A DNA stretch of 64,000 nucleotides from a virus (taxonomy: Duplodnaviria > Caudoviricetes). Shown here piece after piece: positions 26,075 through 62,761 of this stretch. The DNA is taken from positions 59,181 through 123,180 of IMG/VR virus record IMGVR_UViG_3300021255_000040; one strand, given 5' to 3'. Every line of letters begins with the position of its first letter. Within the stretch, counting starts at the first letter, position 1. The notes beneath the pieces are model-generated. The model was not told where the DNA came from and made no database searches. It saw only the letters and a program-made list of their open reading frames with translations. Both the position numbers and the translations under genes were made by a program.

Positions 26075-26241
26075 TGGAGAAATTAGCTATTATGGACTAC
26101 ATCAACCATGAGGTTCACTTGTTTGATGTAGATACTGACCGCAGAATAGAGCTTAGTGAACTTGGCTTCAGAGACTCTGACTGCCATTATATGTTTGGAG
26201 AGGATATTAAAGTTGTTGAACATAAAGAAGTGATAAAATGA
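26074..26241 (+). CDS. Small hypothetical protein (55 aa, MEKLAIMDY...)
   Basis: Fills the gap exactly, with TAATG and ATGA overlaps at either end; below the ORF-track cut-off. Confidence 0.7.
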   Translation: MEKLAIMDYINHEVHLFDVDTDRRIELSELGFRDSDCHYMFGEDIKVVEHKEVIK

Positions 26242-30842: not shown

Positions 30843-31031
30843 ATGCCACAATATTGTCATGATTATCTTCATTGCAGTCAAAAAGATTGTAAGAAAAAGG
30901 ATGCTTGTTGGAGATACTGGTTAGGTCAGGAGATTAAAAATACTGAGTACCAGTATGCTTCTTTCTATATGCCTCAAAATAAAGAGGATATTGATAATTG
31001 CAGGTATTATGAACCATTAAATGAACATTGA
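30843..31031 (+). CDS. Small Cys-rich protein
   Basis: D..HC....C.....CWRY motif. Confidence 0.6.
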   Translation: MPQYCHDYLHCSQKDCKKKDACWRYWLGQEIKNTEYQYASFYMPQNKEDIDNCRYYEPLNEH

Positions 31032-31033
31032 CT

Positions 31034-31600
31034 ATGGCAAATATGGCAAGTGTGGCTTATGCCATTGAAGGGCCACAAAAGAACTTAGAAGAAATCCTTA
31101 GAGCTATTTGTCTGGCAATGACAGATAAAGAGCACTGGACTGAGTATAAAGCTTGTGAACATCTTGGATTCACTGAGCAGGAACTTGATGGTAAGAGACT
31201 TGGAGGTGAGATAGAGGATGAACCTACTTTTGATAATGGAGTCTTGAGATTCTATGCTGAAGAAAAATGGGGTTTACAGGACTTTGAAGAGCTGCTGAGA
31301 CAGAAGTTCCCTGACATCAAGGTCTATTGGACTGTTGAGGAGTGTGGCTGTGAGGTCTATTGCACCAATGATAAGGAAGGTAAGTACTTTCGTGAAAGAT
31401 ACTGGGTAGATACTGCACAGGATGATATTTATCAGTCAGAGTACTTCATCACAGAGGAAGCTATGTGGAAGTGGCTCAGTGAAAAGTATGGAGTCAAGTC
31501 AAAGGAAGAAGTAGAAGCTTGGAACCAAGACTATGAAGCTACAGGTGATGAGTGTGAGAACTTCATCTATATTCATGAGTTTGATGTAGTGGAGGACTAG
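31034..31600 (+). CDS. Acidic protein with possible ferredoxin-like (DUF1281/YubB-like) fold
   Basis: MAN...W......L..KFPD...Y..EE.GC pattern. Confidence 0.55.
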   Translation: MANMASVAYAIEGPQKNLEEILRAICLAMTDKEHWTEYKACEHLGFTEQELDGKRLGGEIEDEPTFDNGVLRFYAEEKWGLQDFEELLRQKFPDIKVYWTVEECGCEVYCTNDKEGKYFRERYWVDTAQDDIYQSEYFITEEAMWKWLSEKYGVKSKEEVEAWNQDYEATGDECENFIYIHEFDVVED

Positions 31601-31605
31601 ATAAT

Positions 31606-31641
31606 AGGAAGGGAATAGTAATAGCTATTCCCTTTCTTTTT
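31606..31641 (+). terminator. Intrinsic terminator ending the replication/accessory operon
   Basis: aagggaatag-taatag-ctattccctt followed by a T-tract. Confidence 0.8.
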
Positions 31642-31712
31642 GAATACTTACAAAAATTATAAGTCATATAAAGACTTTAATTAAACAAACCCTTTAGATA
31701 ATAAGAATAGAT

Positions 31713-31720
31713 TACCTTTG
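31713..31720 (+). promoter_or_regulatory. TAnnTTTG promoter box for the RNAP gene
   Basis: TACCTTTG 28 nt before the ATG at 31749. Confidence 0.7.
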
Positions 31721-31748
31721 CCACAAAATCAAATTAAACGTTTAATTT

Positions 31749-34700
31749 ATGGTATGTGTAGATAAAAAAAGCCCTGAGTTCCTGAGGTTAGCCAGACGCA
31801 TGAATCTGGATGCTAACATACTGGAGCAAATCATACATAAATACTACAGAGAGTCTGGTCAGGAGGAGCTTTTCCCCACTGATGTGTATGTCAATGCTCA
31901 GTTAGGGAGAACTCAGTACGAGGAGGCTATGCCCACTGTCAGACAGTTTTGGGAAAATGCTTACAGTCAGCCTAAGACTTTCAGTTCTGAAGGTGAATAC
32001 AAACGAGCTTGGGTTCAGGCTATCAATTATTTTCCTAAGGAAGCTATTGTCAATTACAAAGATACTAATGGCAACTTTATTCTGGCAGTAAGGAGACCTG
32101 TGGAAAAGCTTGAGAAAAACTCCAAGGGAATGATGATTGTGACTGATGCAGAAGGTAACAGACTGCCTATGCTGTCACATCAAGAAGCCAGGGATTATGC
32201 ATTAATTACCAGTCAATTGTTGCCTGATTCAGAAAAAAGTAGTACTTTTGCAGCTGATATGCGAAGTGTAACTGAAAACCAGGACTACATCTCAGATTCT
32301 CTGGATGCAGCAATGAAGACTGGTAGGTGGAATGACCAAGCTATAAAGGATTTAGAGAAACTAATTAAAAAGATACAAGATGGAGAAGTTGATTTTAAGC
32401 GAACAGTGGGAGAAAGATTCTCCTTCACGAAAGGCATCTCTGAAGCACATGCAGCAGCATCCCTTATCACAAGAGGATCTTATGGAGCAAGTCAAGCAAA
32501 ATCAGGAGCTGCGAAAGAAATATATGACAGAGATGCAGCCCAAGGCAGGCAGCAAGAAAGGCTGATAGAAGCATGGGCAAAGGCAGCTGACCTTTGGGTT
32601 AATGACTATACAGATGCACAAGGCCATAAAGCTAATAGTCTTGAGGGCTTAATGCACAGTCAATGGCAGTATATGGATCAGGCATCTGAAGCTGAAGTAT
32701 TCAGATATGATGATACTCAAGTCATTAAGTCAATTAGTCTGTCACACTCCAATGACAATGTGGCTAAGCTACTTGACAGAATAGCTCTTTTCAATCAACT
32801 ATTCCCTGAGACAGCTCTTACCATTCAAGGATTTGGCAGAGACAAGCTGGGACACTTCAGGGTTATTGCCACTCAGAATCTTATTAATGGTAAGGAGCTG
32901 ACTGATGAACAGCTCAAGAAGTTCCATGATAAGTATAAGCTTAAGGAGCAGGGTGCTTGGTTTGTCACTCCTGATGGTACAGCTCTTATCAATGACTTGA
33001 CCAATGCCAATGTCATGATTGATGAGCAGGGTAACTATTATGTCATTGATGCTGATGTAGTCTTCAACACTCCTGAAATGGGTGGTAAGGTTCTTTTTGA
33101 TAATTCCTTTGAGTTTCATCAGAAAGAAAGACCTGCCAGAAAGGAACGTCAGGTGATTGGCCCACAGCCATTTACATTTAATGATGGTACTGTAGTTACT
33201 GTTCCCTTCAAGCCCAATGAGCAACAGGCAGAGGCTCTAAATGCCATGAATGACTTCCTCAACTCTGATGAGACTACCATGACTCTATCAGGTTATGCTG
33301 GTACTGGTAAGACCTCGCTCATGGAGATTATTGCTCAGAAGGCAAAGAGACAGCATAAACCCATCATGTTCAGTGCTACCACCAACAAGGCTGCTGCTGT
33401 CTTGAAAGCAAGAGTCTCTAAGGCAGGTTTTGATGCTCAGACACTGAACAAGGTATTTGGTATTAATGTAGAAGTTGATTCTTCCAAGGCTTATAATGCA
33501 AGGAACCTGGTTACTGCTTTGAGAGATGCTGACATCATGCCTGGCACTACAGTAGTCATTGATGAAGCCTCTATGATTAATGAGGAGAACTATAGAATCC
33601 TCAACAGAATAGCCCGTGAGAATGGTCTGAAGATTATCTATGTTGGTGATAAGGCACAGCTTGCTCCAGTCAATGAGACTCAGGTCTCTAAGGTATTTAG
33701 AAACTCTGAAGGCAGGGTTGTAGAGCTTACTCAGGTAGAGCGTACTGATGACAATGCTATCCTTAAGGAAGCTACTAACATCCGCAATGGCCTGCCTCTG
33801 TCTGGTGAATCTAGTTTCAATGAAAGAGGTGAAGGTGTAGGGTATCTTACTCCTAAAAGCCGTGATGAGATTGGTAAAGTTATCAGGCACTACATCCAAG
33901 GACTCAAGGATAATCCTAACTTCTTCAGGATTCTGGCTTATACTAATAAAAAGGTAACAGAGTACAATGACTTTGTGAGAACTCTCCTTGGTTACACAGA
34001 CCCTATTCCTCATGTTGGTGAACCTCTGACAGGTTACAATAACTGGGGTTATGACTGGAGAACTAAGAGTTATAGATTCATTAACTCTGAGAGCTATAAA
34101 GTTACAAGAGTTGGCAAACCTGCACAGTCTAAAATTTCTGTGAATGGTCAGGAGTTTACTATGACCTATGTTCCTGTTACTATGGAGAACTCTCTTGGTG
34201 AGAGTGACACCTTTAATTATATGGATATTAAGGGTAATCAGGAGAATAGACAAGCAGCTCTTCAACTGGCTACTCAGAAGAAAACTCTGTGGGAGCAATA
34301 TAGACGTGCTGTTGGTAGAGAGGCTAAAAGTAACATCTTATCCCAGATTAACTCTATTGACCAGTTCCTCTTTGTCAATGACAATATTGAAGACCCAACT
34401 ACTCATAATCTGCTCCAGCCTAAGACTGTAGATTTTGGTTATGCCCTAACTATCCATAAGTCCCAGGGGTCTACTTTCACTCATGTTCTCATGGATGATA
34501 TTGATGTGGCAAAAGCAGGCAACACATTAAACAATGCTGCCAATGCTATGTCTGTAGTTGACTTGGGTGATGCAGGAATGGTTGCTGATGCTTCTATGGA
34601 AATGAGGGGCTCTGAGGATGTTGACTTAGGTGATTTGTCCTCAGTTCCTGCTGAAGAGCCATCTAGTAGTAATCCTAATATTGCTAATGTTCGTCAGCAG

Positions 34701-37700
34701 TTGGAATATGTAGGTGTATCAAGGGCTACCAATACTGTCACTATTATATCTAATAATGTAAAGACAGAAGGCAGTCCTTTGACTCCTCAGAACTTGATTA
34801 GTAAAGAGGACAGTAATCCTTCTAACAATGAGGTTCAAGGAGAGAATATTGCCTCCAATGGCTCAGAGTTTGCCAAGAAACTTACCAATCCAGGCAATAA
34901 CTTGCAGGTAGAGTACAAAGGCAAGACCTTTAGGAATGCAGAACATGCCTATCAGACATGGAAGTCTGGAGAATTTGATGAAGTAGCTTATAATAGTACA
35001 GCTTTCAAGTCTAAAGGTAGTAAACCTGCCAACAAACAGACTAACTATCAGACTATGGTAGATATACTCAAGGCTAAACTCCAGCAACATCCAGAACTGG
35101 TTGAAGGAATTACACAGAGAGGCGGAGAGGAATACCTTAAAGCCTCTACCCATAAGGTTACTGGTGACAAGTATTGGGAATCTACAGGCCAAAATAAGTT
35201 CATCGAGGCTCTTACTGAAGCTTACAATGCAATAAACCAAGGAGATAACCGTTCTAATGAAAAGACCAATCTGATTGCAGCAACTATTGGTCCATATTTC
35301 AATACTTCCTATGAGGATTATATGGCTATGGTTCCTGAGAAACAAAAGGAGATGAGAGAAGCCTTTGCTAAAGCTGCTCATGAAGTAGCAAAAGCATTGG
35401 GCATTCCTCTTGATATGAAGCAGGCTTCTTTCAATATTGGAGGCTATGAGTTTGAAGATGGAAGTTCTGTTATAGAACCGAGTTTTACTTTTAGATTTGG
35501 AAAAGATGCTACTCCCGAACAGGTAAGAATGTTTGCAGCTCTCATGGGAGATTTAGGATATGAACAACAAGAAGCTGTAGTTACTAGTTGGGATGTAGCA
35601 AATGAAGAAGAAAGGGATGGTGATAGACACTTTATTGAATTCAAAGAAGAGGAACTGCCACTACTTAAGCAGTTTGGAATTAAAAATTTTACCTTTGATA
35701 AAACAAGAGGTGTTTTGTCTGTCCTAAGTTTTGATACCAAAGATGTAGAGAATTTTTATAAATTAGTAGAAACTATAAAACAAAAAGAGAATGGACTTGA
35801 AGAAACTCAAAGAAGAAACCCCAGAAGAGCGTCGTTTAAGACTTTCTATGATGAGAAAGAAGGAAGAAGAGCTTTGTACGAAGCTTGGAGTGTCAATGCC
35901 AAAGACAGAAGTGCCGAAGAAGGAAGACCCTCTGGAAGTGACAATCTCGTTCAAGAAGCACTAGAAAAGCTTCAAAATAGAGAGTTACCCATTGATAGAG
36001 AAACTCCTACTGAACAACCACAGAAAGTGTCTCTACCCAGCTATGAATATTTCATGGACAGGTATGAAGATACTACTGTGGATGCTGTTTGGAAGATTCC
36101 ATTGCTTCAGCAGTTAGATTCACAACTGACTACTGAACTGACTCCTGAAGAGAATAATGAGATTCTTGACAGAATGACAAGGATTCTTGAGGCAAAGTCT
36201 CAGGAGGATTTGTTGGACTTGCAAACTGAAGAACCTAAAGAAAAGAAAACAGTGGAACAAAACCTCACTGAGTTTGAGAAGATGACCCAACAGATTAATA
36301 ACCTGTTGGACAGTAACATCATCTCTGCTTCTGAGATTAGACATGTGGCTGAACTGGTGGTTAACTCCATCAGTGACACCATTACTATTCTACAGAAGGA
36401 AGATGGTGCTGCTGAGAAGTTCTTCCCTAACATTGAGACCAAGATTGACTTTAAGACAGCTTCTCGTAAGGATATAGTTGAAGCCATTGGTATTAATAAC
36501 CTCATTCACAGAGCCAAGCAGCAGTTTGACCCTGAACAGAATGACTATGAGGACTTTGATACCATTGACCAGGCTGACCTTATTATAGACAACTGGGATG
36601 CCATTATGACTCTTGCTGCTGATACCTTTGCTATGACTGAGGGATTTGGTATCATGAGAAATTATGACAATGGTGGCTTCAACACTACTCAGGCTTCTAC
36701 CATTGACTATGATAACTTCAATGATTATAGCAACGACTCAGATGCTATGGCTGAATCAGAGAAGGATGAACAGGAGCATTGGCAGGTAGAGCAGAGAACT
36801 ATTGATGTGCTGAACTCTATGTCACAACTGGTAAGACTTGCCCTGCATGACTGCTACCAGATGGACAAGGATGGCAATAAGGTAATGAGTAAATGGGGCA
36901 TTGCTGAAAGAGTAAATCCACGTCAGGCAGTAAACAGCATTCTCAGATGGACTCAAGGAGCATTGTCTCTTGAGGATATGATTCAAAGGATGCAGAACAA
37001 AGCCACTCAGAATCCTTGGCTCAATCAGTTAGTAGAGAGGCTCTCAGACAAGAGTGGTCAAGAAGCTGACTTCCAGAGCCAGTTCTTTGGGGTATTCTCT
37101 AAGCACTTCCAGCCATACTCTGTAGTTCTGCTTGAGGATGGTAAGTATCACAGCATTCCTGTGAACTCTCATCCTGCACTCTCTGAGGCTATGCAGACTA
37201 TCACTACTCAGTTTAAGATTGGTGAGCATCCTTTGTTTACTGACAAGGGCATCAATGTGAAACTACTGGGTACTGAAAGAACTACATTCCCTGAAGCAGA
37301 TTTCAATTTGCATAAGGCTCTGAGTAATCTCCAGACCATCCAAGACAGGCTGAATCATGGTGAGCAATTCTCTGACAAGATAGCCAAGGATGCAACAGCT
37401 GAGATTATGGGTGTTTGCAGAGTACTGGGTTATCCTGTTACTGAGGAAATGCTTTCAGAGGCTATCAATGAGGAGAAGCTGAAGTACATGACAGACAAGC
37501 TTTACCACATGGTGAAGTCTTTGGATGCAGCACTGGAAGCTCAGAGAAGAGAGCCTAACAAGCAGTATAATCCATTTGCATTTGGTACTGACAATAGCAT
37601 TGGTGGTACTTTGAGAAACTTCCTCACTCCTATTACAGATACTCTGGAGGATACTGCTGTAAGTGCTTTCTATGACTCAGGCAAGATGTATCAGAGTTAT

Positions 37701-40700
37701 GTAACTCCAAGCTTTATGACCAAGCTGATGAATAAGTTCCGTTTGGAAGGTCAGGAGTTTGAGGACTTCATCATGCAGGAGTATGGCAACTCTGAATGGT
37801 TTAAGTCAGGAAAGAACCAATGGGATATATCAAGAGGTTGGAGAAATGTATGGTTACAGCTCCTTGCTACTGATGAGAATGCCCGTAAGGTGTTTGACCA
37901 TAAGGTAGAGCTGAACTTCAACAAGCACAATTACATGAGGAATATGAGTGATGCAGAGTACACCTTGTCTCTTATCACAGAGTATTTCGCAGAAACTGCT
38001 CAGAAGGGTCAGTCTATGGTTCCTGCTTGGTTCAGAATACCTATCATGTCTAACAAGCCCAGCTCTGAGTTCATTAAGTTCTATTCCTACAGAGGTGCTA
38101 ACTATAAGGATGAAATTATCTTTGGTTTGCATCAGATGTTTAACCAAGAACTCTCCAGAATTCAGACTGTTAACATGAGGAATCACTCTAAGGGTGATAG
38201 TGAGTTCATTGCTAACTTTGATACCAATGGTAGAAAGTTCAACTTCCTGCCTTTCCTCAATCAGTTCTTGGATAAGGCTAATCATTCTGAACTGACAACA
38301 CTGCTCAAGAAGAAAGTAGAAGGTCTGACTGCCTTGACTGCTGAAGAAGAGGCAAGACTCTCTACTCTGGTGGATCAGGCTATCAGGCAGGATATGGACA
38401 TAAGAGTCAATAAGATTCTGAATGAATGGGAGAACAGTGGTATCCTTGAAGCTGCTCAGAACATTGACGGCATTGGTACTGAGGAAGCTCAGATTAGGGC
38501 TAACCTAGAAAACTTCCTGTGGAATGATAACTTTGCCTCAAAGAACATTCTCCAACTGACTGTCACTGACATTGCTTTTTATAAAGATGCAGAAGACCTC
38601 CAGAAGCGTCTGGCTCAGATTCATGCTCCTGGTATCAGAGGTAATGTGGCTGCTACAGACTATGAAGGCAACAGAGTATCTGATGGTAAGTACAGAACTA
38701 TCCTGATTCAAGGCTTGCAGAAGTTCAAGACTGACTTAATAGCTAATCTTACAGAGGTATTTGACCGTAAGATAGCTGCTGCTCCTGATAGTCAGAAAGC
38801 CCAGTGGAGAGCATTGAAGGAAGACTTGGTTGGTGAGAATGGCAGATATACCAAGATTGATGTTACTGATGGTCAGGGTTATTCCTCTCCATCATCTTAT
38901 AGGAAAAAGGCATTCATCTTTGGTAGATGGTCACGTCAGGCAGAGGATATTTATCAGAAACTGCTGAAGGGTGATTATAACTACAGTGACTTAAAGGTTG
39001 CTTTCCAGCCTTTGAAACCATTTGTATATACTCATCTTCAGAAGGATATGGGTGTGGACAATGCTCCAATCCATTCAATGCCCGTACCTTTCCAAGCCAA
39101 GAACTCTGAGTATCTGCTCATCATGGCTGATGCATTACTACAGGGAGAGAAGACTTCCAAGCCTAATCTCCTGAGAGCTATCTATAGAGTGATGGAGGAC
39201 AGTGAGAGACTTGCTCCTACTAAGGGTATTGACACTGTTCAGTTTGATTCTGCCATTAAGTCAGGTCTTCAGGCTCCTATTGACCTCAATCCATTTGTAG
39301 ATATGGTTGGTGGCGAAGAAGCTGCCTTTGAGTATATGAAGGGCTTGATTTACAAGTTGGATGACCAAGGCAATCCTTCTGTTGAATACAACACTGATAC
39401 TTATGTTCATGAAGGTGAATATGAGGATTACTGTTTGCAGCAGGAGGTTCCTGAGCACTTCAAGGATCACTCTCAGGCTCATGGTTCTCAGATAAGAATG
39501 ATTATTCCTTCTGACCTTGATTTCTACAAGAATCCTAATGGTGACAGAACTGCTGAAGACAATCAAGTCTATTATGAGTGGACTGAGCCTGATGGTACCA
39601 AGAAGAAACTGAAGGCTGATGAGTTCCGCAAGGAGTATGAAAAGACTATTGCTGACAATATCAGGGAGAGTATTGATCTACTTTCTCAGGAACTGCATAT
39701 CAATAGCAATGACAAGAAAGAAAGGAACATTGCTCTGTCTAAGATTCTTCAAAGGGAAATCCTCTCATCTCCCAGATATGGTATAGACCTTATTCAGGCT
39801 TGTTCTATTGATAAGGAGACTGGTGAGTTCAGAATTCCTAAGGGAGACCCCATTCAGGCTAAGAGGATTGAGCAGCTTATCAACTCTATCATCAAGAACC
39901 GTGTGAATAAGCAGAAGATTGCTGGTGGCCCTATTGTTCAGGTAACTAACTTTGGTACTTCCCGTCAGCTGCACATCAGGTTCAATGATAAGAATGGTGG
40001 ATTGCTGATGACTCGTGAGGAGTATGAACAGAATCCTCAGAAGAAGAAGATGTCTCAGACTGATAAATTTAATGCCCGCTATGGTAAGAAAACTGCTTCA
40101 GGCAATATGACCTATGAGGAATATGTCAAGCAGAATCAGGCAGGTATTGCTTACTTTGAGGTATTTGTTCCTATCTGGTCTAATGAGCTGTTTGAGAAGT
40201 TTGCCAATCCTGATGGTTCTATCAATGTAGAGGCAATAGAGGCTACAGACCCTGAGCTCTTGAAGATGATTTCATACAGAATTCCTACTGAGGACAAGTA
40301 CTCTTGTGCTCCTATGAAGGTTGTAGGATTCATGCCAAGAGAAGCTGGTGATGCCATCATGTTCCCCTATGAATTGACTGAGATTGATGACTCTGACTTT
40401 GATGTGGATAAGAGATACACCATGCGTAAGAATATTCCCATCAAGAGAAAGGCAAAGCACATCATTCGCAAGGAACTCTTTGACATTGTGTCTGACAGCT
40501 ATCAGAAGCAATATAATAAGGAGTTGCCTGCCAACATTGCCAGTGAGATAGAGATATTCTTGGATTCTCCTGACACTATGAAGGACAAGAACAGCTTCAA
40601 TCAGTGGATGCACAGTCAGTATCAGAGAATAGCCTATACCACAGAGGCTCCTACCTCAGGCAGAACATACAGAGACAACAAGATTGTAGATATGACTTGG

Positions 40701-42935
40701 GCAGTACTGACCAATGAGATGACTGCTGACAAGATTCTCAATCCTGGTGGATTTGATGTGTTCAAAAGGAATGGTTATATGGTTGCTGCCTACAAGAATC
40801 CTGCCAACAACTATTCATGGGAACAGCTCCAGCAAATGTCTATTGATGAACTGAACAAATTGAGTTACACTGAGAAAGACCTTACATGGTTGGATACTCA
40901 GATTCAGTTCTATAAGCAGAATGCTGCTGCTGCCTCTCTGATTGGTGTGTTTGCTGTAAACAAGGTAGCTCATGCTACTCTAGAGAGCAACAATTATTAT
41001 GTAGCAGTTGATGAGGTTTGTGACCCACGTCCATTCATTATTGCTGATACTGAGTTTGGTGGTAGAATGAAGGTTGACCCAACTTATGATAGGGAAGGTA
41101 ATCTCATTGGTAAGACTATTGGTGCTGGTGTATCTGCTTCAGCTGATGCTGCCAAGACACCTGTGTTAAATCTGATGAACATCAACATGACTACTGCTGG
41201 CATCTTCAATACCCTGCTCAGACTGGGTATGGCTCCTAATGATGCTTCTCTGTTTATGTCTCAGGATGTGATAGAGAGAGTACTCAATGAGTTTAATCGT
41301 GAGAACCTAACTAACTATAAGCCACTCTCCACTATCATTGAGGAACATCTGTCAGAGCTGCGTGAGAAGCATAACATTTCTGATGATTCCAACATCAACT
41401 CAGAAGCCTTGTCAAGAGAGGAAATGGTAGATGGCTTGTTGCCTGTCAATCCTATGAATCAAGATAACCATGAGGTCATTGACTACAAGGTTCTGCTTGC
41501 TTTCCAGAAAGTAAGGTCATTGGTAGATGCTATGAGAAAACCTACATTTGCTACAAGATTCAACTCTGTCTCTTCAGCTGTAGGCCCACTCATCATTGAT
41601 AACCTTATTATTGAGCATAAAATGGAGCAGTTCACTGATGCAGCTACTGAGGATGGTACTCACTTCTATGATTCAGAAGGTACTCCTGTAGATATTGATG
41701 ACATCTTCTATGACCATCCTATTCTGAAAGAGTTCTCTCGCACTGTTGATATTGCCAAGTCCATGTTCTATGACATGCCTGCTGGTAGTAGAGGATTCAG
41801 AAACCTGTTGGCTACTCTGCCTGAGGGATTAATAGATAAGGTATATAATGACAAGAAGCTCTTGGATAACCTGAGCAACTTCTATCAGTCATACCTGCTC
41901 ATTGCATCCCGTATGGTGAATCCTGCCAACCTGAAGAACTACATTGATGGATTCCCTAAGTACTTCAATGAACAGAAGTTCAAGGAGAAGTACCATGACA
42001 ATGCACTGATTCAGGCTATTAGAATGAATGTAGCCAAAAGAACAGGCAGACCATTCCTCTCTATTAACATCACTGGTATTGATGAAGCTCAAAAGGAAGT
42101 ATATCGCAGTGCATGGATTGACCTACATAAGGATAATCCAGAATTATCTAAGAGGCTCTTCGAATACTGTTTCTTCCGTGCTGGCATAGGATTCAGTCCT
42201 AAGACATTCATGTCACTGGTTCCTGCTTATGTCAAGGAGAGACTCTCTACAAACTTAGATAATAATACTCAAGCTACTTATGTGGATACTTACAGAATGT
42301 TCCCAACAGTTAATCCTGAGGTTGTTATAGACCAATGGGTAAGAAACAATTGGGATAACAACAAGCTGGTTCCTAAGAAGGGTGGTGAAGGTACTCACTA
42401 TGCTGTAGATTTGAAGAGAGGTACTCTGATAGCAAGAGACCCAAAGGATATGGCTGACTTAAAGGGTAACAAGTACATTAAGACCCGTCATAATGGTCAG
42501 ACATACCTATGGAAACAACTCATTGCTGATAAGACTGCTGTCAACTATGTGATGGTGAAACCTCTAGGTAACAATGGTGAATATATGGAGATGAGTCTTG
42601 CAGATATTACCAAACCTCTGAGTGAAACCAAAGAAACCATCGAGGATATGCAGGAGTCTGAACTCCAAGCTACCAGTCCTGCTGAAGCTGATGCAGCTCA
42701 GGAGTCAAATGCTGATACAGTAACTGATGGTGAGAAGGCAAAGCAAACAGCAGAGTTGGCAGAACTCTTGATGAAACAGAATCCTAAGTTTAACAAGACT
42801 CAGGCTCTGAATCAGATAGAGAGGATGAAGGAGAAACCTAACATGTATGCAGGGTTCTTGGTGAATGTGTTTAAGCAAAAAGGTCTGAACCTGACAAAGG
42901 AGGAGGCCATTAAAGAATTCAAAAAAATGTGTTAA
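31749..42935 (+). CDS. Giant virion DNA-dependent RNA polymerase (crAss type) with N-terminal kinase, SF1B helicase, NADAR and possible SAM-lyase-like domains
   Basis: Catalytic DFDVD (about 40395-40409), YRIPTE and TDGQGY; helicase GYAGTGKT, IDEASM, VGDKAQL and TIHKSQGST; kinase NDLTNANV and VIDAD; NADAR AEHAYQ and DKYW..TGQN. Confidence 0.9.
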   Translation: MVCVDKKSPEFLRLARRMNLDANILEQIIHKYYRESGQEELFPTDVYVNAQLGRTQYEEAMPTVRQFWENAYSQPKTFSSEGEYKRAWVQAINYFPKEAIVNYKDTNGNFILAVRRPVEKLEKNSKGMMIVTDAEGNRLPMLSHQEARDYALITSQLLPDSEKSSTFAADMRSVTENQDYISDSLDAAMKTGRWNDQAIKDLEKLIKKIQDGEVDFKRTVGERFSFTKGISEAHAAASLITRGSYGASQAKSGAAKEIYDRDAAQGRQQERLIEAWAKAADLWVNDYTDAQGHKANSLEGLMHSQWQYMDQASEAEVFRYDDTQVIKSISLSHSNDNVAKLLDRIALFNQLFPETALTIQGFGRDKLGHFRVIATQNLINGKELTDEQLKKFHDKYKLKEQGAWFVTPDGTALINDLTNANVMIDEQGNYYVIDADVVFNTPEMGGKVLFDNSFEFHQKERPARKERQVIGPQPFTFNDGTVVTVPFKPNEQQAEALNAMNDFLNSDETTMTLSGYAGTGKTSLMEIIAQKAKRQHKPIMFSATTNKAAAVLKARVSKAGFDAQTLNKVFGINVEVDSSKAYNARNLVTALRDADIMPGTTVVIDEASMINEENYRILNRIARENGLKIIYVGDKAQLAPVNETQVSKVFRNSEGRVVELTQVERTDDNAILKEATNIRNGLPLSGESSFNERGEGVGYLTPKSRDEIGKVIRHYIQGLKDNPNFFRILAYTNKKVTEYNDFVRTLLGYTDPIPHVGEPLTGYNNWGYDWRTKSYRFINSESYKVTRVGKPAQSKISVNGQEFTMTYVPVTMENSLGESDTFNYMDIKGNQENRQAALQLATQKKTLWEQYRRAVGREAKSNILSQINSIDQFLFVNDNIEDPTTHNLLQPKTVDFGYALTIHKSQGSTFTHVLMDDIDVAKAGNTLNNAANAMSVVDLGDAGMVADASMEMRGSEDVDLGDLSSVPAEEPSSSNPNIANVRQQLEYVGVSRATNTVTIISNNVKTEGSPLTPQNLISKEDSNPSNNEVQGENIASNGSEFAKKLTNPGNNLQVEYKGKTFRNAEHAYQTWKSGEFDEVAYNSTAFKSKGSKPANKQTNYQTMVDILKAKLQQHPELVEGITQRGGEEYLKASTHKVTGDKYWESTGQNKFIEALTEAYNAINQGDNRSNEKTNLIAATIGPYFNTSYEDYMAMVPEKQKEMREAFAKAAHEVAKALGIPLDMKQASFNIGGYEFEDGSSVIEPSFTFRFGKDATPEQVRMFAALMGDLGYEQQEAVVTSWDVANEEERDGDRHFIEFKEEELPLLKQFGIKNFTFDKTRGVLSVLSFDTKDVENFYKLVETIKQKENGLEETQRRNPRRASFKTFYDEKEGRRALYEAWSVNAKDRSAEEGRPSGSDNLVQEALEKLQNRELPIDRETPTEQPQKVSLPSYEYFMDRYEDTTVDAVWKIPLLQQLDSQLTTELTPEENNEILDRMTRILEAKSQEDLLDLQTEEPKEKKTVEQNLTEFEKMTQQINNLLDSNIISASEIRHVAELVVNSISDTITILQKEDGAAEKFFPNIETKIDFKTASRKDIVEAIGINNLIHRAKQQFDPEQNDYEDFDTIDQADLIIDNWDAIMTLAADTFAMTEGFGIMRNYDNGGFNTTQASTIDYDNFNDYSNDSDAMAESEKDEQEHWQVEQRTIDVLNSMSQLVRLALHDCYQMDKDGNKVMSKWGIAERVNPRQAVNSILRWTQGALSLEDMIQRMQNKATQNPWLNQLVERLSDKSGQEADFQSQFFGVFSKHFQPYSVVLLEDGKYHSIPVNSHPALSEAMQTITTQFKIGEHPLFTDKGINVKLLGTERTTFPEADFNLHKALSNLQTIQDRLNHGEQFSDKIAKDATAEIMGVCRVLGYPVTEEMLSEAINEEKLKYMTDKLYHMVKSLDAALEAQRREPNKQYNPFAFGTDNSIGGTLRNFLTPITDTLEDTAVSAFYDSGKMYQSYVTPSFMTKLMNKFRLEGQEFEDFIMQEYGNSEWFKSGKNQWDISRGWRNVWLQLLATDENARKVFDHKVELNFNKHNYMRNMSDAEYTLSLITEYFAETAQKGQSMVPAWFRIPIMSNKPSSEFIKFYSYRGANYKDEIIFGLHQMFNQELSRIQTVNMRNHSKGDSEFIANFDTNGRKFNFLPFLNQFLDKANHSELTTLLKKKVEGLTALTAEEEARLSTLVDQAIRQDMDIRVNKILNEWENSGILEAAQNIDGIGTEEAQIRANLENFLWNDNFASKNILQLTVTDIAFYKDAEDLQKRLAQIHAPGIRGNVAATDYEGNRVSDGKYRTILIQGLQKFKTDLIANLTEVFDRKIAAAPDSQKAQWRALKEDLVGENGRYTKIDVTDGQGYSSPSSYRKKAFIFGRWSRQAEDIYQKLLKGDYNYSDLKVAFQPLKPFVYTHLQKDMGVDNAPIHSMPVPFQAKNSEYLLIMADALLQGEKTSKPNLLRAIYRVMEDSERLAPTKGIDTVQFDSAIKSGLQAPIDLNPFVDMVGGEEAAFEYMKGLIYKLDDQGNPSVEYNTDTYVHEGEYEDYCLQQEVPEHFKDHSQAHGSQIRMIIPSDLDFYKNPNGDRTAEDNQVYYEWTEPDGTKKKLKADEFRKEYEKTIADNIRESIDLLSQELHINSNDKKERNIALSKILQREILSSPRYGIDLIQACSIDKETGEFRIPKGDPIQAKRIEQLINSIIKNRVNKQKIAGGPIVQVTNFGTSRQLHIRFNDKNGGLLMTREEYEQNPQKKKMSQTDKFNARYGKKTASGNMTYEEYVKQNQAGIAYFEVFVPIWSNELFEKFANPDGSINVEAIEATDPELLKMISYRIPTEDKYSCAPMKVVGFMPREAGDAIMFPYELTEIDDSDFDVDKRYTMRKNIPIKRKAKHIIRKELFDIVSDSYQKQYNKELPANIASEIEIFLDSPDTMKDKNSFNQWMHSQYQRIAYTTEAPTSGRTYRDNKIVDMTWAVLTNEMTADKILNPGGFDVFKRNGYMVAAYKNPANNYSWEQLQQMSIDELNKLSYTEKDLTWLDTQIQFYKQNAAAASLIGVFAVNKVAHATLESNNYYVAVDEVCDPRPFIIADTEFGGRMKVDPTYDREGNLIGKTIGAGVSASADAAKTPVLNLMNINMTTAGIFNTLLRLGMAPNDASLFMSQDVIERVLNEFNRENLTNYKPLSTIIEEHLSELREKHNISDDSNINSEALSREEMVDGLLPVNPMNQDNHEVIDYKVLLAFQKVRSLVDAMRKPTFATRFNSVSSAVGPLIIDNLIIEHKMEQFTDAATEDGTHFYDSEGTPVDIDDIFYDHPILKEFSRTVDIAKSMFYDMPAGSRGFRNLLATLPEGLIDKVYNDKKLLDNLSNFYQSYLLIASRMVNPANLKNYIDGFPKYFNEQKFKEKYHDNALIQAIRMNVAKRTGRPFLSINITGIDEAQKEVYRSAWIDLHKDNPELSKRLFEYCFFRAGIGFSPKTFMSLVPAYVKERLSTNLDNNTQATYVDTYRMFPTVNPEVVIDQWVRNNWDNNKLVPKKGGEGTHYAVDLKRGTLIARDPKDMADLKGNKYIKTRHNGQTYLWKQLIADKTAVNYVMVKPLGNNGEYMEMSLADITKPLSETKETIEDMQESELQATSPAEADAAQESNADTVTDGEKAKQTAELAELLMKQNPKFNKTQALNQIERMKEKPNMYAGFLVNVFKQKGLNLTKEEAIKEFKKMC
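32220..32250 (+). promoter_or_regulatory. Promoter inside the RNAP coding sequence (TTG-N20-TACTTTTG followed by CA)
   Basis: Same elements and 20-nt spacing as the promoters at 10271-10301 and 48899-48929. Confidence 0.6.
32380..32565 (+). CDS. Nested +1-frame ORF (61 aa) just before the kinase domain; candidate inhibitor
   Basis: A-rich leader (ctaattaaaaagatacaag-ATG), upstream internal promoter and E/K/Q-rich helical composition unlike shadow ORFs. Confidence 0.55.
   Translation: MEKLILSEQWEKDSPSRKASLKHMQQHPLSQEDLMEQVKQNQELRKKYMTEMQPKAGSKKG
35791..35964 (+). CDS. Nested +1-frame ORF (57 aa, MDLKKLKEETPEERRLRLSMMRKKEEELCTKLGVSMPKTEVPKKEDPLEVTISFKKH)
   Basis: A-rich leader (aactataaaacaaaaagaga-ATG), TACCTTTG at 35690-35697 and charged helical composition; below the ORF-track cut-off. 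Confidence 0.55.
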   Translation: MDLKKLKEETPEERRLRLSMMRKKEEELCTKLGVSMPKTEVPKKEDPLEVTISFKKH

Positions 42936-42938
42936 GAT

Positions 42939-45900
42939 ATGGCTAAATCATGTGTTTTATATCCAGACGCTCCTAATGGACAGCCTAGTAAGATGTATAA
43001 GGACTTGCTGGAAAAGAATAAGTTAGGCAGGCCTCTTGTGAATATGCTCTATGCTTCATACATTGCTTCTAATGCAGCTGATGCAATGGATCAGGCAGGT
43101 TATCAGAGAAACTCTCAAGGTGAGCACAATGCTGCTGATGTGATGAAATTCTTAGATGTCTATACAATGCTCAATGAAATGGCAACTCTCTCTTCGGAAG
43201 AGTTGTCATGGGGCATTGTGGATAATAATGGTAATAGAATTGATTTCACTGATGGTAAACAGGCCCTTGAGAAAGCTGATGCCTTTAATGATGCTCATAC
43301 TGGATTGACTGCTACAGTTATTCAGCATGGTAACATCTATAACATTATCACTGCTGAAAAAAATTCCAGGACTCATACTTATGGCATGGATGTCAAGGAG
43401 AAGCTAAAAGTATGGGATGTAGAGAAACAAGCATTTGCTGCTGTAGGCATTGATATTGACAACATGCCTCAGGAGCTAAAAGGTATATTCACCCCGATGA
43501 ATACAGGATTGGTGTCTTACCTGCAAGGTCTTCAGAGATTAGCAATGGGCAACCTCTACAAGAAAGATGCTTTACTGTTGTTTAATATGGATCCAAACTC
43601 TGCACAGGTTAGAAGACTTGTGCAGAACTTTGGTTCTATTGATATAGCTGCTGAAGCTATCAATAACATTAATCATGGTATTGGCAACTACACTACTGCA
43701 CAGAAACTTTTATTAAAGAGGGCTGTAGACCACTGTAAGCAGTATCAAGGCATTGACCTGAATGCTCTGAAGGCTCAGGTAGACCAGATGTCTCAACAGG
43801 TTATTCAGAGTAGTCCAGATGAAGCTATCAAACAGACCCTACATCAGCTGAACAAGAAGTATAAGATTGACATCAATGAGATTCATCGCATTGGAAATAA
43901 AATTAATACTCTTTCTGAAGCTGCTACCGATGCTGCTGTAACTATCCAGAGACAAATCAGACAACTGGAAAAGGAGCAAGGCAATAATGTAGAAGGCAAG
44001 AGGCTGGAGGGTGTCTTGAATCAGTTGATGCGAGAGCTGGCTAATAAGAAGTATTATTCTGGTGTATTAAACTTCTTGAGTGAAGCACAGACTCAGATTG
44101 CCGAGATTGACAATATGCTCAACAACATTCCTCAGACTGGTACTGAACTGGAGAAAGCCTTTGGTACTGCCAAGATTCTTCAGGACATCAAATCTTTGAG
44201 AGAACAGTATTATACCTTAGTATCTGCCTTAGCTGATGAGCATCTAACTATTGACGAATCAATCAATCAGTCTGATATTGATAACATCCGTCAGTCTGCC
44301 AAAGCCTTGAAAGAATACTTTGACAAGAAAGAAAGAGTACTGGATAATCTGACAGAGCAAACTATGATTAGTCTGATGACTCAGATTGTAGGTGACGCAG
44401 CCCCCAATGGCCAAGCAATGATAAATGTAATCAGAATGGCTGCTGCTGACAGTTCTCTATCAGACTATTTGTATAGTGTTGGCAGGGCTTCTAATCCTAT
44501 TATAGCTGCTATGGGTAGTATCATCAGGAATGCTCAGGACTCAAGAGATGGTGTAATGAATAACTTCTCACTGAGAATCCGTAGGGCTACTGATAAACTC
44601 TACAAGTCTGGCAGTGACTCTTCCTTTATGTATGAGGATGATGGTCATATCATCAGTGATATTGACTGGAGTCTCTACAAAGCTGCAAGGTCTGCTCATA
44701 TCAAAGATTTATATAGACAAGGCTTAAGAGGCTTCGATCTGAAGCAGGCTATTGAAGATTGGGAAGATGTGAATACTGAGGATAGGGTAGTTGATAATAC
44801 CAATGGTAGAACTGAGAGAGTACCTGATGCTTCATACAGGAAACCCTTCCCTGCATTGACTCAAGCTCAACAGGAATACTATGATGAGATGATGCAGCTC
44901 AAAGGTGAGATTGGTTCTTTTCTTCCTGCTTATGCTCAACATCAATACTTGCCTCCACAGCTTCGTAGAAACACAATGGATGCTCTGGGGCAGGCAAAGA
45001 ATGTTAAAGATGTAGCCAAAGCTCTTAGAAACAAGTTTGAGAATATCTGGAAAATCCGTGAGGATGATGAGAACTATAATATGAATGGTATCATTGATGG
45101 TGATGAGTATGCCATTACCAATGGTGCTTTTGATAACACTCCACTCCGTCAGATTCCTATCTTCTTTGTCAACAAGGTAGAACAAGAAGAACTATTAAAG
45201 AACTTCTCCACAGGTATTGCAGCTCTTGCAGGTACTGCCATTAACTATGATGCTATGAGTAATGTAGCTCAGGTGGTAGAGTTTATTGGTGACTTTACTA
45301 AAGGACAGGTTGCCAGAGACAAAGACCCTAAGGCTGACATCATTGAGAATAAGCAGATAAGAATCTTTAAAGACCTGTTCAAATGGGGAAAGAATACTAA
45401 TACTGCTGGTATCATTGATGGCTTTATCTCACAGCACATCTATGGTCAGAGGCTGGATCCAGAACAACCTGGTTATAAGTGGGCTAAACTGGTTCAAAAT
45501 ATCATTGGCTATACTTCATTCAAGGGACTATCTACAAACTTAAAAGGTGCGTTTAGTAACTACTTAGTGGGTGAATTTCAGATGATGATTGAAGCAGGTG
45601 CTGGAGAGTTCTATGGTTTCCAAGATTACCTATGGGCACACTCTAAGCTCTTTGGTAACTCTGGTGTAGGAGGTGAAATGGCAGAGCTTCTAACCAATAA
45701 TATGAATAGCAAGGGAACACTCTTCAGAGAAATGTTTGACCCAATTAATGAGAACTTCTCAGACAAGAGTCATACTAAATACTATAAGAGTATGTTCCGT
45801 CAATTAATATCCCATGACTGTTCTTTCATTGGTTACAGCTCTGGTGAATATCTTATCCATTATGTTAATATGTATTCTATTCTCCATAACCAAAAGGTAT

Positions 45901-46832
45901 TGGATGCTAACGGCAAAAAGATTAGTCTCTATGATGCCTTTGAGGTGACTGGTAAGCAGAATGGCAACTCTGAGTTAAGGCTAAAGGCTGGTATCACCAT
46001 GCTTGATGGTAGTCCTGTTACTGCTGAGTTCATTGATAGTATCAGGAAGAAAATCAGGTATGCCAACCAGACTACTCATGGTTCTATGAATACTGAGGAT
46101 AAAGGTCTTATCCATCAGAAGCTATGGGGCAGAGCAGTGATGAACTTCAGACAATGGATGGTTGAACATTATAGTAGAAGATTCAGAAAAAGGCACTTTG
46201 ATGCATCATTAGGTATGGACAGAGAAGGATACTGGCAGAGCTTCTACCAATATATGTTCAATGAAGATACCAAGGATGAGTGGAAAGAAGGCAGTAAGAT
46301 TAATGCCATTGGAATGTTCATGAAGGACTATATAACTTTCCTGTTGAGAGCACAGTCCCAGTGGCATAATCTGGATGAGATGCAGAAGTATAATGTCAAG
46401 AGAGTACATACTGAGATGATGATGTATTTTGCACTATTGGGCATCAGCTTTGCTCTTGGAGAACCAGACAAACACAAGAAGGAATTCTGGAGGAGATGGT
46501 GGATTTATCAGGTGAAACGTATGATTCTTGATACTGAGGGTTCTATGCCTCATCCTAAGTTCATCTCTTCTGCCTTGACTATTCTTCAGTCTCCTATGGC
46601 GGGTGTTAACACTGTCAACTCCCTATTGTATTCTTTCTATGGTCTTACCAATGGAGACCTGATTGGTGACAACAACACTATTAAGTCAGGAGACCATAAA
46701 GGAGAAAACAGATACTGGAGAAACATGAAGAAGTATAATCTTCCTTTCTTCAAAGACTGGGAACAGATGCAAAAGATGTCAGAAGATGAATCTATCTTCC
46801 AAGTATTCAAAGATACCCCATCTAATCATTAA
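42939..46832 (+). CDS. Large virion/ejection (cargo) protein associated with RNAP
   Basis: 1297 aa, helical, 3 nt downstream of RNAP; C-terminal HG......GR...FRQW pattern seen in crAss cargo proteins. Confidence 0.7.
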   Translation: MAKSCVLYPDAPNGQPSKMYKDLLEKNKLGRPLVNMLYASYIASNAADAMDQAGYQRNSQGEHNAADVMKFLDVYTMLNEMATLSSEELSWGIVDNNGNRIDFTDGKQALEKADAFNDAHTGLTATVIQHGNIYNIITAEKNSRTHTYGMDVKEKLKVWDVEKQAFAAVGIDIDNMPQELKGIFTPMNTGLVSYLQGLQRLAMGNLYKKDALLLFNMDPNSAQVRRLVQNFGSIDIAAEAINNINHGIGNYTTAQKLLLKRAVDHCKQYQGIDLNALKAQVDQMSQQVIQSSPDEAIKQTLHQLNKKYKIDINEIHRIGNKINTLSEAATDAAVTIQRQIRQLEKEQGNNVEGKRLEGVLNQLMRELANKKYYSGVLNFLSEAQTQIAEIDNMLNNIPQTGTELEKAFGTAKILQDIKSLREQYYTLVSALADEHLTIDESINQSDIDNIRQSAKALKEYFDKKERVLDNLTEQTMISLMTQIVGDAAPNGQAMINVIRMAAADSSLSDYLYSVGRASNPIIAAMGSIIRNAQDSRDGVMNNFSLRIRRATDKLYKSGSDSSFMYEDDGHIISDIDWSLYKAARSAHIKDLYRQGLRGFDLKQAIEDWEDVNTEDRVVDNTNGRTERVPDASYRKPFPALTQAQQEYYDEMMQLKGEIGSFLPAYAQHQYLPPQLRRNTMDALGQAKNVKDVAKALRNKFENIWKIREDDENYNMNGIIDGDEYAITNGAFDNTPLRQIPIFFVNKVEQEELLKNFSTGIAALAGTAINYDAMSNVAQVVEFIGDFTKGQVARDKDPKADIIENKQIRIFKDLFKWGKNTNTAGIIDGFISQHIYGQRLDPEQPGYKWAKLVQNIIGYTSFKGLSTNLKGAFSNYLVGEFQMMIEAGAGEFYGFQDYLWAHSKLFGNSGVGGEMAELLTNNMNSKGTLFREMFDPINENFSDKSHTKYYKSMFRQLISHDCSFIGYSSGEYLIHYVNMYSILHNQKVLDANGKKISLYDAFEVTGKQNGNSELRLKAGITMLDGSPVTAEFIDSIRKKIRYANQTTHGSMNTEDKGLIHQKLWGRAVMNFRQWMVEHYSRRFRKRHFDASLGMDREGYWQSFYQYMFNEDTKDEWKEGSKINAIGMFMKDYITFLLRAQSQWHNLDEMQKYNVKRVHTEMMMYFALLGISFALGEPDKHKKEFWRRWWIYQVKRMILDTEGSMPHPKFISSALTILQSPMAGVNTVNSLLYSFYGLTNGDLIGDNNTIKSGDHKGENRYWRNMKKYNLPFFKDWEQMQKMSEDESIFQVFKDTPSNH

Positions 46833-48929: not shown

Positions 48930-48946
48930 CACAAAAATATATTGAG

Positions 48947-61366: not shown

Positions 61367-62761
61367 TTATTCTGGAATGTCATTTAAACCATCATCTTCA
61401 CTACCTCCACCAGCAGCTCCACTGCCTTGATTTCTGTTCTGAGTGATAATCTTTCTAGGCACAAGTTCTACACTAGCTTCAGTATCATTGAACAGTCCAC
61501 CACTATAAGGTTGGAAATAATAGTCATACAAATGCTGCTTACCATCACCCACCAATGGAGCAATAGCTTTCTTCACATAGGTTGGCAGTCTATCATAAGA
61601 GTAAAGCACTCCAGGATGGTTAGTGTCATCACTGGCTACTGCCTCTACATTATAATCATCATCAGCATCACCATTAGTATCAGCAGGATTATTACCATTC
61701 CAAGTGAATTTCACTCTACCACCAGTCTGAGTATCTTTCATGGTTGAACTGCCACCACCTCTACTACCAGTTCCTTTAGCAGCTGCAACAGCCTGAGCCT
61801 TTCTCAAAGTAACATCCTTCTTGGGATCATAAGTCCAGTTACCATCTTCATCTTGAGTGTAACCAGCCATAGCAATCTGCATATTGTGCTGCCTTACACT
61901 CTCATTATGATTAGCCCAACCTCTAGCACTAGAGTCTCTCTCACTGGCTGACATCACTCCAGCATCCCTTACAGGCTTCACACTCTCCTGATATACTGCA
62001 CCATCAATAATACCATTGAGCACACTCTGTCTGGCTCTCTCAAGATTGCTGCCACTAAGGTTTTCCAGCACTCCTCTCTCCTGAAGAATAGCATCAGCAG
62101 CCTGTTGCAGTTCTGGTATGGCAGCAGCATTAGCACGAAAGGCATTGATACTGTCAGCACTATAGCCATTTCTCTCAACCCATTTCCTGTAATATCCCCC
62201 AAGAGTAGAGCCTTCATCACCAGCACTGTATATCCTAGAAGATGCAGCCTTGCCAGCAGCAGCTCCTCTGGTATAGAGTTCTGTACCACTAATATTATAA
62301 AGGTTAGGAGTGTTGCCATCCAAGAAGCTGTCAATGCTTAGATTATCCAGAGCATAGAGCATACTGGAGTCTTTAGCACTCATTTGTCTCCTCAGTTTCC
62401 TTTCCTCTTGCAATGCCTGGTCAGCCAAATCCAGTCTGCCAATCTCTCCTTGATACCTTCTCTTCAGGTTGGTTAAAGCTCTGCGATTACTCATGGAAAG
62501 ACCATTCTTTGCTAAGTCTTCTGCCTGCTGATTCAGTTCATTGGCATAACCTTCATAGATTTGTCTGCTCTGGCTTCCCTCAGGCAGTGTCTGACTGAGA
62601 TATTTGAACTTATCAGCCTTTGATGACAAATCCTCATAGGCACTCTCCATCTTCTCAAAGTTCTCCTTATACATCAACATAGGTGTCAGGAGTTCCTGCA
62701 TGGAGAATGGCTGGAAGCTGCTGTCAATGGTGAAGCTGTAATTATTATGTCTGTACGGCAT
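61367..62761 (-). CDS. Virion/cargo protein
   Basis: FQPFSMQELLTP N-terminal motif; lies between the portal and the giant protein. Confidence 0.65.
   Translation of the reverse strand: MPYRHNNYSFTIDSSFQPFSMQELLTPMLMYKENFEKMESAYEDLSSKADKFKYLSQTLPEGSQSRQIYEGYANELNQQAEDLAKNGLSMSNRRALTNLKRRYQGEIGRLDLADQALQEERKLRRQMSAKDSSMLYALDNLSIDSFLDGNTPNLYNISGTELYTRGAAAGKAASSRIYSAGDEGSTLGGYYRKWVERNGYSADSINAFRANAAAIPELQQAADAILQERGVLENLSGSNLERARQSVLNGIIDGAVYQESVKPVRDAGVMSASERDSSARGWANHNESVRQHNMQIAMAGYTQDEDGNWTYDPKKDVTLRKAQAVAAAKGTGSRGGGSSTMKDTQTGGRVKFTWNGNNPADTNGDADDDYNVEAVASDDTNHPGVLYSYDRLPTYVKKAIAPLVGDGKQHLYDYYFQPYSGGLFNDTEASVELVPRKIITQNRNQGSGAAGGGSEDDGLNDIPE

Follow-up and report, generated by a model that had tools for sequence, protein, structure and literature searches.

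An N-terminal extension of exchangeable enzyme cassettes on a crAss-like phage's virion RNA polymerase

No phages are more abundant in the mammalian gut than the Crassvirales, and little has been learned of how they withstand host defences during the opening minutes of infection, hence the interest of the locus described here. In crAss001, Gp50 is one of three RNA polymerase (RNAP)-associated cargo proteins detected in virions by mass spectrometry (PMC10172136). Polyvalent proteins have been described in phages and conjugative elements, and N4-type virion RNAPs, with their attached domains (MPTase, ART, lysozyme, and PBECR), are among them (Iyer et al. 2017, PMC5512222). The IMG/VR virus record IMGVR_UViG_3300021255_000040 is a complete 123,180-bp genome with direct terminal repeats, and we analyzed its right half (positions 59,181–123,180), a stretch of 64,000 nucleotides hereafter called the window, to which all coordinates refer. 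It encodes an orthologue of crAss001 Gp50 preceded by an N-terminal effector array, in a single open reading frame (ORF) of 3728 amino acids (aa; 31749..42935, + strand). As the initial annotation of the window claimed, this ORF is uninterrupted, remaining open for 11.2 kb with no internal stop (translation table 11), and the motifs cited there (QASEAEV, DRIALFNQLFPET, NDLTNANV, and VIDAD) are all found in it. The extension ahead of the RNAP, then put at about 1400 aa, is indeed present and is in fact 1505 aa long, if it is taken to end where similarity to the nearest named phage's RNAP sets in (aa 1506, nt. 36264).

Polyvalent injected proteins and N4-type virion RNAPs as their carriers are already known, as is a GenBank DUF1768 label on the RNAP of the cr126_1 phage. 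The main new result is the modularity of the extension among relatives of this polymerase; in the literature, we found no description of an effector array on a crAss virion RNAP, of cassette exchange at anchor peptides, or of the S-adenosylmethionine (SAM)-lyase-like family described below.

Cassette exchange within a fixed frame

The RNAP body (aa 1506–3728; 36264..42932, +) matches gp66 of the phi14:2 phage (PDB 6VR4, E 4e-13, aa 2832–3544; phmmer against PDB sequences) and carries the catalytic DxDxD motif as DFDVD (aa 2883–2887; nt. 40395–40409). A tblastn search with the RNAP matched 116 crAss-like records, the nearest named one being that of the cr116_1 phage (Pamirivirus faecium, Steigviridae; 51–56% identity), and the alignment with crAss001 Gp50 spans 91% of the body. 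By homology, the body is a crAss-type two-barrel virion RNAP, whose orthologues are known from virions (PMC10172136; 10.1101/2020.03.07.982082).

Upstream of the body, the extension comprises a leader, an unassigned stretch, a kinase domain, a helicase, a NADAR-fold domain, a SAM-lyase-like domain, and a linker. To compare it among relatives, we retrieved 30 IMG/VR records using the start of the RNAP body as the query, in which the extension varied from 44 to 2940 aa in length. In the closest two, L004 and L005, identity to the protein described here was 92% in the helicase, 86–88% in the body, 75% in the linker, and 68% in the leader, yet only 36% in the kinase and 31% over aa 121–261, and the NADAR and SAM-lyase-like domains were absent altogether. 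At the DNA level, similarity to L004 extends over nt. 31610–32255, 33131–34792, and 36012 onward, and is missing from two blocks. Variable block A (aa 170–460; 32256..33130, +), which holds an unassigned stretch and the kinase, has flanks that are 75–86% identical and no similarity of its own. Variable block B (aa 1016–1421; 34793..36011, +) holds two cassette positions, and its only similarity is a 33-nt joint between them (35226..35258, +), 31 of whose 33 nucleotides are identical in L004 and L005 and which encodes the peptide INQGDNRSN (aa 1162–1170). The DNA breakpoints coincide with the domain borders, the kinase block and the NADAR/SAM-lyase block having been replaced with breakpoints at the anchor peptides EGSPL, INQGDNRSN, and LPSYEYF. 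The initial annotation had raised the exchange of N-terminal modules among related crAss RNAPs; this proved correct for the kinase, NADAR, and SAM-lyase-like domains and incorrect for the helicase, which tracks the body.

The same joint in L004 and L005 divides two other cassettes, unrelated to those seen here. In L004, block B (L004:8453–9721) consists of cassettes of ~176 and 236 aa, neither with a Pfam match, and we regard both as candidate effectors. The INQGDNRSN peptide occurs in 13 of the 30 relatives, 155–200 aa past EGSPL and ahead of the linker anchor (LP[SG]YEYF), and in P0002, one of the giant proteins carrying the SAM-lyase-like domain, it lies immediately ahead of that domain. 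The segments that relatives do not share fall into ~17 clusters. ART-PolyVal, SprT-like zincin, and DUF1848 are represented among them, along with two additional lineages of NADAR and many cassettes without a family. Order also varies, with the kinase located past the helicase in three relatives (L019, L021, and L022). Among carriers of the SAM-lyase-like domain, seven giant proteins and two short ones (P0071 and P0081) include the crAss RNAP body; P0002 is arranged as leader–helicase–SAM-lyase–NADAR–linker–body, a cassette order different from that described here, and P0045 as leader–SAM-lyase–body. We also noted the domain within the RNAP body itself in P0015 (aa 2911–3124) and L032 (ORF aa ~2849).

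Around these blocks lies a fixed frame. The leader (aa 1–120; 31749..32108, +) is 42–68% identical in 25 of the 30 relatives, is matched more weakly by L026, L032, and the cr116_1 phage, and was undetected by BLASTP in crAss001 Gp50 and the cr126_1 phage; it displayed no family, fold, or Atlas match. The sequence that follows it (aa 121–261) likewise had no Pfam and no Atlas match. The pre-polymerase linker (aa 1420–1505; 36006..36263, +), with the LPSYEYF anchor (nt. 36033–36053) at its start, was found in 26 of the 30 relatives. Judged by their conservation, the 120-aa leader, the helicase, and the 85-aa linker are inherited together with the polymerase.

Enzyme domains of the extension

The kinase-like domain noted initially was confirmed as a member of the Kinase-PolyVal family (PF18762, 75.9 bits against a cut-off of 27, E 4.6e-21; aa 268–438; 32550..33062, +), with coordinates in agreement. 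Seven residues (E314, K327, N349, Q376, D416, N421, and D434) are invariant in a 13-member clade alignment. The hallmarks of the family are an ATP-binding Lys, a catalytic Asp and Asn, a Mg-binding Asp, a Glu before strand 2, and a Gln in the N-lobe's final strand (PMC5512222), and the domain has this set as K327, D416, N421, and D434 with the family-specific E314 and Q376. One departure counts against an intact kinase, namely that the His upstream of the catalytic Asp, near-invariant in the clade and present in the 12 relatives of the alignment, is Phe348 here. Some canonical kinases do tolerate an aromatic side chain at the corresponding site. Among the proteins on which the Pfam family was founded are polyvalent proteins encoded by Bacteroidetes (pro)phages (PMC5512222).

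The Dda/RecD-like helicase of superfamily 1B (aa 475–1015; 33171..34793, +) was likewise borne out at the position first given, by profile matches (AAA_30, 111 bits; phrog_325 'Dda-like helicase', E 4e-73; T4 Dda 3UPU, E 3.7e-11) and by the presence of superfamily 1 (SF1) motifs I, II, III, V, and VI, namely GTGKT (aa 518), DEAS (605), GDKAQL (633), HKSQG (903), and VSRAT (990). The C-terminal end of the domain is the EGSPL anchor (aa 1007–1011; nt. 34767–34781). A ~70-aa acidic low-complexity insert separates motifs V and VI (nt. 34521–34700, aa ~925–985). The helicase is the only one of its kind encoded in the genome, and the crAss001, cr116_1, and cr126_1 phages have none; given that these nearest named relatives lack it, we read the helicase as an acquisition of this clade and rejected its derivation from a replicative SF1 helicase relocated into the polymerase gene.

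The third domain (aa 1030–1160; 34836..35228, +) had been called a NADAR domain, at coordinates that agree with ours. Sequence comparison alone fails to establish this, the Pfam score (PF08719, 16.7 bits, E 0.0088) being below the threshold of 35.1 bits, hhalign against the clear NADARs of relatives giving a probability of 2.5%, and phmmer and profile searches against the PDB returning no match; the assignment therefore rests on fold and catalytic residues. We identified 10 homologues at 55–75% identity, one of them labelled DUF1768 by its source, and an AlphaFold2 model built from these (predicted local distance difference test score, pLDDT, 87.7) ranked YbiA first among PDB structures in Foldseek (2B3W, E 2e-4, prob 1.0, TMq 0.65), followed by 8BAU (prob 0.97) and 8BAT, with all others far behind. 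Its Atlas neighbours are NADAR and Phage_30_3. Across the NADAR superfamily, only two catalytic residues are largely conserved in sequence, a Glu and a Lys (E88 and K95 in the E. coli C7 NADAR), and the third catalytic position in phage NADARs is a His (Schuller et al., PMC11543638). Consistent with this, E1065 and K1072, seven residues apart (E-x6-K), are invariant in the 10 homologues, as is H1135, which lies within a TH...D..W motif common to the NADARs of relatives and is a candidate for the third catalytic residue. We therefore describe aa 1030–1160 as a divergent NADAR-fold domain and a predicted ADP-ribosylglycohydrolase. An apparent co-linear 'NADAR' in L010, L018, and L033 was rejected, as the BLAST extension had run through unrelated sequence.

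The fourth domain (aa 1172–1410; 35262..35978, +) does exist, although it runs well beyond the initially proposed end (35270–35790). A SAM lyase had been guessed from the spacing of its motifs, and this guess holds up on fold ranking and a residue signature without a significant sequence match. The domain had no Pfam match, PF23780 included, and HMMER, run in full over 1.84 billion representatives, recovered 98 relatives, more than half of them within proteins of 1,300–4,100 aa and at varied positions. With 26 relatives aligned, AlphaFold2 produced a confident model (pLDDT 90.9; predicted template modelling score 0.87), for which Foldseek returned the T3 SAM lyase (prob 0.99) and Svi3-3 (prob 0.96). 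After VIA re-ranking, the first four positions were all SAM lyases (6ZNB, Z 7.9, root-mean-square deviation 2.6 over 106 aa; 6ZM9, Z 7.4; 8BB1 and 7OCK, both Z 6.8), with SAM-AMP lyases at Z 6.0, and a Foldseek-independent scan of 48,161 chains placed Svi3-3 at rank 1 and the T3 and SAM-AMP lyases at ranks 5–6.

Several points weigh against a SAM lyase. The sequence searches were non-significant (a profile search against the PDB, a search with the T3 SAMase, and hhalign against a T3-family profile, E 0.44), the lyase scores are all below Z 8, a range rated as common by the tool, and the domain is ~240 aa long against 125–150 aa in known lyases. In addition, a polymerase palm (9C51, Z 7.2) and a GGDEF domain (Z 6.4) score within 1 Z of the lyases and are statistically tied with them, so that fold alone does not decide. 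It is the residue pattern that tips the balance. In SAM lyases, only Gly56, Glu69, and Gln104 (Svi3-3 numbering) are strictly conserved, with Tyr58, Ser71, and Glu105 lining the site (Guo et al., PMC7877911). The best conserved columns among 102 members of the present family are G1231 (96%), Y/F1233 (95%), E1243 (96%), S1245 (98%), Q1274 (100%), and E/D1275 (92%), which here read G1231-G-Y1233, E1243-P-S1245, and Q1274-E1275, in the same order as and with spacing similar to G56/Y58/E69/S71/Q104/E105 of Svi3-3. In the model, these residues lie on a beta-hairpin and a helix-to-strand junction, as they do in Svi3-3, and the sole hhalign alignment (the non-significant one above) puts them in register with T3 G55/Y57/E68/T70/Q94/D95. 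Weighing fold and residues together, we lean toward placing the fourth domain in the SAM-lyase family. The local GGYEF sequence made a GGDEF or nucleotide-cyclase domain another candidate, one that we consider unlikely given that 95% of members have Y/F at its third position and that its fourth and fifth positions vary.

Known SAM lyases are trimers of 125–150-aa subunits whose active site is formed at the subunit interfaces. The phage enzymes (T3 gp0.3 and Svi3-3) and the SAM-AMP lyases are the best fold matches to the fourth domain and have the G-x-Y / E-x-S / Q-E order and its strand positions in common with it; they differ in that the domain here has an extra second alpha/beta lobe and C-terminal helices, and in that the phage lyases are free early proteins, whereas this family is embedded in giant proteins. 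In the BFVD, the whole domain recurs in entries named 'large polyvalent protein associated'; lower in the list come T7-like early proteins of small size and a protein annotated as a SAM hydrolase. We also found the family within a protein carrying MuF_C and LPD38. A recurrent module with an FGSNPEG-HGAGAA motif follows the SAM-lyase-like domain in P0002 (aa ~1040–1190) and P0003 (C-terminus).

Proposed function and alternative readings

We consider it probable that the N-terminus of this crAss virion RNAP is a polyvalent array, composed of a fixed frame and two exchangeable blocks, that travels with the polymerase and equips the phage in advance to commandeer or disarm its host. That the extension is packaged and injected is our inference, as are the activities and targets of its enzymes. 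Cassettes would be traded between strains by recombination at the short conserved anchors (EGSPL, INQGDNRSN, and LPSYEYF), and the whole protein would be loaded in the cargo zone of the capsid and driven into the cell ahead of, or together with, the DNA. The injected enzymes could then act prior to any phage gene expression, with delivery as protein removing the expression lag. The kinase may phosphorylate host proteins, like T7 gp0.7; the NADAR domain may remove guanine ADP-ribose added by DarT1-type defences; and the SAM-lyase-like domain may degrade SAM, or a SAM-derived signal, needed by type I restriction–modification (R-M), bacteriophage exclusion (BREX), or SAM-AMP CRISPR signalling. 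The helicase is more likely to act on behalf of the polymerase itself, opening or clearing DNA as it enters. There are precedents for such activities, given that phage NADARs neutralise DarTG1 (PMC11825919), the T3 SAMase overcomes both type I R-M and BREX (10.1101/2023.02.27.530186), and SAM-AMP lyases take part in type III CRISPR conflicts (PMC12255297). Two observations sit less easily with this proposal, the inheritance of the helicase with the RNAP body (discussed below) and the lack of an HExxH protease motif in the ORF by which the modules could be released; the NADAR and SAMase/SAM-AMP-lyase precedents are, moreover, free early proteins.

The genome setting agrees with a packaged protein. 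Crassvirus cargo protein 2 (61367..62761, −; Pfam crAss_CARGO2, E 3.7e-50) is encoded nearby, which places the locus in a virion-cargo gene block, and the gene order agrees with that of the crAss cargo block, with a 1297-aa gene (42939..46832, +) at the position of the RNAP-associated cargo genes crAss001 Gp49 and cr126_1 gp002, assigned by synteny only, and a 2412-aa gene on the opposite strand at the Gp47 position. A scan of PHROGs gave nothing informative for the RNAP body or for the genes at 42939–46829, 48842–51676, 54114–61349, 61370–62761, and 31028–31597, as the library is without these crAss families, and a megablast search with the extension as query found no match among 50,697 phage records. 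Upstream of the RNAP gene lie an HNH endonuclease (phrog_59, E 4.5e-40; nt. 28211–28798) and a thymidylate synthase homologue (nt. 26238–27143). Some related RNAP genes are themselves interrupted. In the cr116_1 phage, the gene (L001:13128–13969) is broken inside DxDxD (after ...SDFD) by the 648-bp gene gp050 and continues in gp049, which looks like an intron or homing-element insertion at the catalytic site, and the frames of L008 and L019 (ORFs of 2514 and 2488 aa) end ~730–790 aa into the body though their contigs go on, possibly reflecting a split gene or an inserted element.

An alternative is that the extension performs housekeeping for the polymerase, with the helicase unwinding or pulling the genome to give a single-stranded template, the kinase regulating the polymerase or its partners, and the NADAR and fourth domains acting in metabolic clean-up, like YbiA. 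In its favour, the helicase occurs in 25 of the 30 relatives and follows the RNAP body across the clade, being if anything closer to that of the nearest relative than the body is. It is passed on with the body and not exchanged, so we read it as part of the clade's transcription or entry machinery, a fixed and possibly housekeeping component of this polymerase. Recombinant phi14:2 RNAP is also most active on single-stranded DNA (10.1101/2020.03.07.982082), and YbiA-type NADARs are housekeeping enzymes (PMC11543638, PMC11825919). However, crAss001, cr116_1, and cr126_1 manage without such a helicase, and the kinase, NADAR, and SAM-lyase-like cassettes are swapped for unrelated enzymes (ART-PolyVal, DUF1848) even in a relative that is 86% identical, a pattern of replacement that fits conflict genes and not core functions. 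For the extension as a whole, we therefore regard a housekeeping role as unlikely.

We give somewhat less credence still to a second alternative, in which the array is made as part of a polyprotein but is cut off by the time packaging is complete, or is produced as a separate protein, and acts late in the producing cell instead of being injected. It has been suggested that crAss RNAP polyproteins undergo processing (10.1101/2020.03.07.982082), and SprT-like zincin modules occur within the extensions of relatives. A 945-aa protein with no Pfam or PHROG match is also encoded nearby (48842–51679, +), and its single HELLH motif (aa 756) makes it a candidate zincin able to process cargo proteins. 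Against removal, no cleavage site or protease is evident in the ORF, polyvalent proteins elsewhere are packaged (PMC5512222), and the extreme N-terminal leader is conserved with the polymerase, which suggests that both ends form one functional protein.

The fusion itself is well supported across independent material. Extension and body stand in one leader-to-linker-to-RNAP frame in 26 of the 30 relatives, all from other IMG/VR records, and every one of the gene's 30 bins is covered by Logan contigs at ~99% identity that come from four independent studies of the bovine gut. These contigs are short unitigs, establishing presence in the four studies and not the spanning of every junction; one runs from the SAM-lyase-like domain across into the linker, and none of those listed spans the helicase–NADAR junction. 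Contig depth falls 3- to 10-fold at nt. 34596–34982 in all four metagenomes, possibly a sign of strain heterogeneity where block B begins. Despite this dip and the unspanned junction, a mis-called frame or a chimeric assembly, the latter named by the initial annotation as fatal to its claim, can be dismissed as exceedingly improbable, given the length of the open frame, its recurrence in relatives and in four studies, and the independent fusion of helicase, SAM-lyase, NADAR, and RNAP in P0002.

If the injected-array reading is correct, anti-DarT enzymes and enzymes against SAM-dependent defences would arrive in the cell as protein, ahead of transcription; cassette content, not tail fibres, may account for part of strain-level host range; and the variable slots would provide a list of unnamed cassettes for the discovery of counter-defence enzymes. 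The SAM-lyase-like family would, if real, expand an enzyme class that is small and that sequence comparison detects only with great difficulty. A broader synthesis is possible, which we put forward tentatively and with less than even confidence. The front of the virion RNAP may be a recombination-driven polymorphic effector locus, in which the anchor peptides, conserved also in DNA, serve as splice points for trading cassettes (kinase, ART, NADAR, SAM-lyase-like, DUF1848, and many unnamed), so that each strain injects its own counter-defence kit with the first polymerase; the ~100-member family would then be an unnamed larger class of lyases of SAM, or of a SAM derivative, in wide use in injected phage proteins.

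Comparison with known systems

Taking a polyvalent protein to be one with at least two disparate enzyme domains in a virion-gene setting, the product of this ORF belongs among them, with four enzyme domains and an RNAP encoded beside cargo genes. It has in common with described examples the many unrelated enzyme domains in a giant polypeptide of a virion locus, a virion RNAP as carrier, the Kinase-PolyVal and ART-PolyVal families, and a predicted action at entry. It differs in its carrier, which in the N4-type phages is a T7-like RNAP and here is the non-homologous crAss two-barrel enzyme, and in that its cassettes lie between conserved anchors. A zincin peptidase is frequent, though not obligatory, in polyvalent proteins; the ORF has none, and SprT-like domains are present in relatives. 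By term search, NADAR and SAM-lyase-like modules were not found within the published survey (PMC5512222).

Among crAss phages, phi14:2 gp66 (6VR4) and crAss001 Gp50 share the homologous body, the DxDxD motif, and a neighbourhood with Gp49-, Gp47-, and cargo-2-like genes. Gp50, however, is a 2412-aa protein without an effector array, and the polymerase described here has 1505 extra N-terminal residues. Closer in kind are cr116_1 gp051 and cr126_1 gp003 (Steigviridae, human gut), whose RNAPs are 56% and 24% identical, respectively. The former shares the leader and has an N-terminal ART-PolyVal domain with a weak SprT-like match, while the latter has an N-terminal NADAR domain and is labelled 'DUF1768 domain-containing protein' in GenBank; their cassettes differ from those seen here, and neither has the helicase, the kinase, or the SAM-lyase-like domain.

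Phage NADAR anti-DarT factors (AdfN and T4 gp30.3; PMC11825919) share with the third domain the NADAR fold and the Glu/Lys pair, and H1135 is a candidate for their phage-type His. AdfN is a free protein made after entry, whereas the NADAR domain here is shorter (~130 aa), very divergent, and fused to a packaged-type polymerase.

The cassette exchange also has a parallel in polymorphic toxin loci. There, a short conserved motif (VENN in CdiA, PxxxxDPxGL in Rhs) borders variable enzymatic cassettes that are exchanged by recombination. Motif-bordered exchange is thus common to both systems; in the crAss virion RNAP, however, the cassettes sit within an essential phage gene, on the N-terminal side of its conserved part, and are accompanied by no immunity genes.

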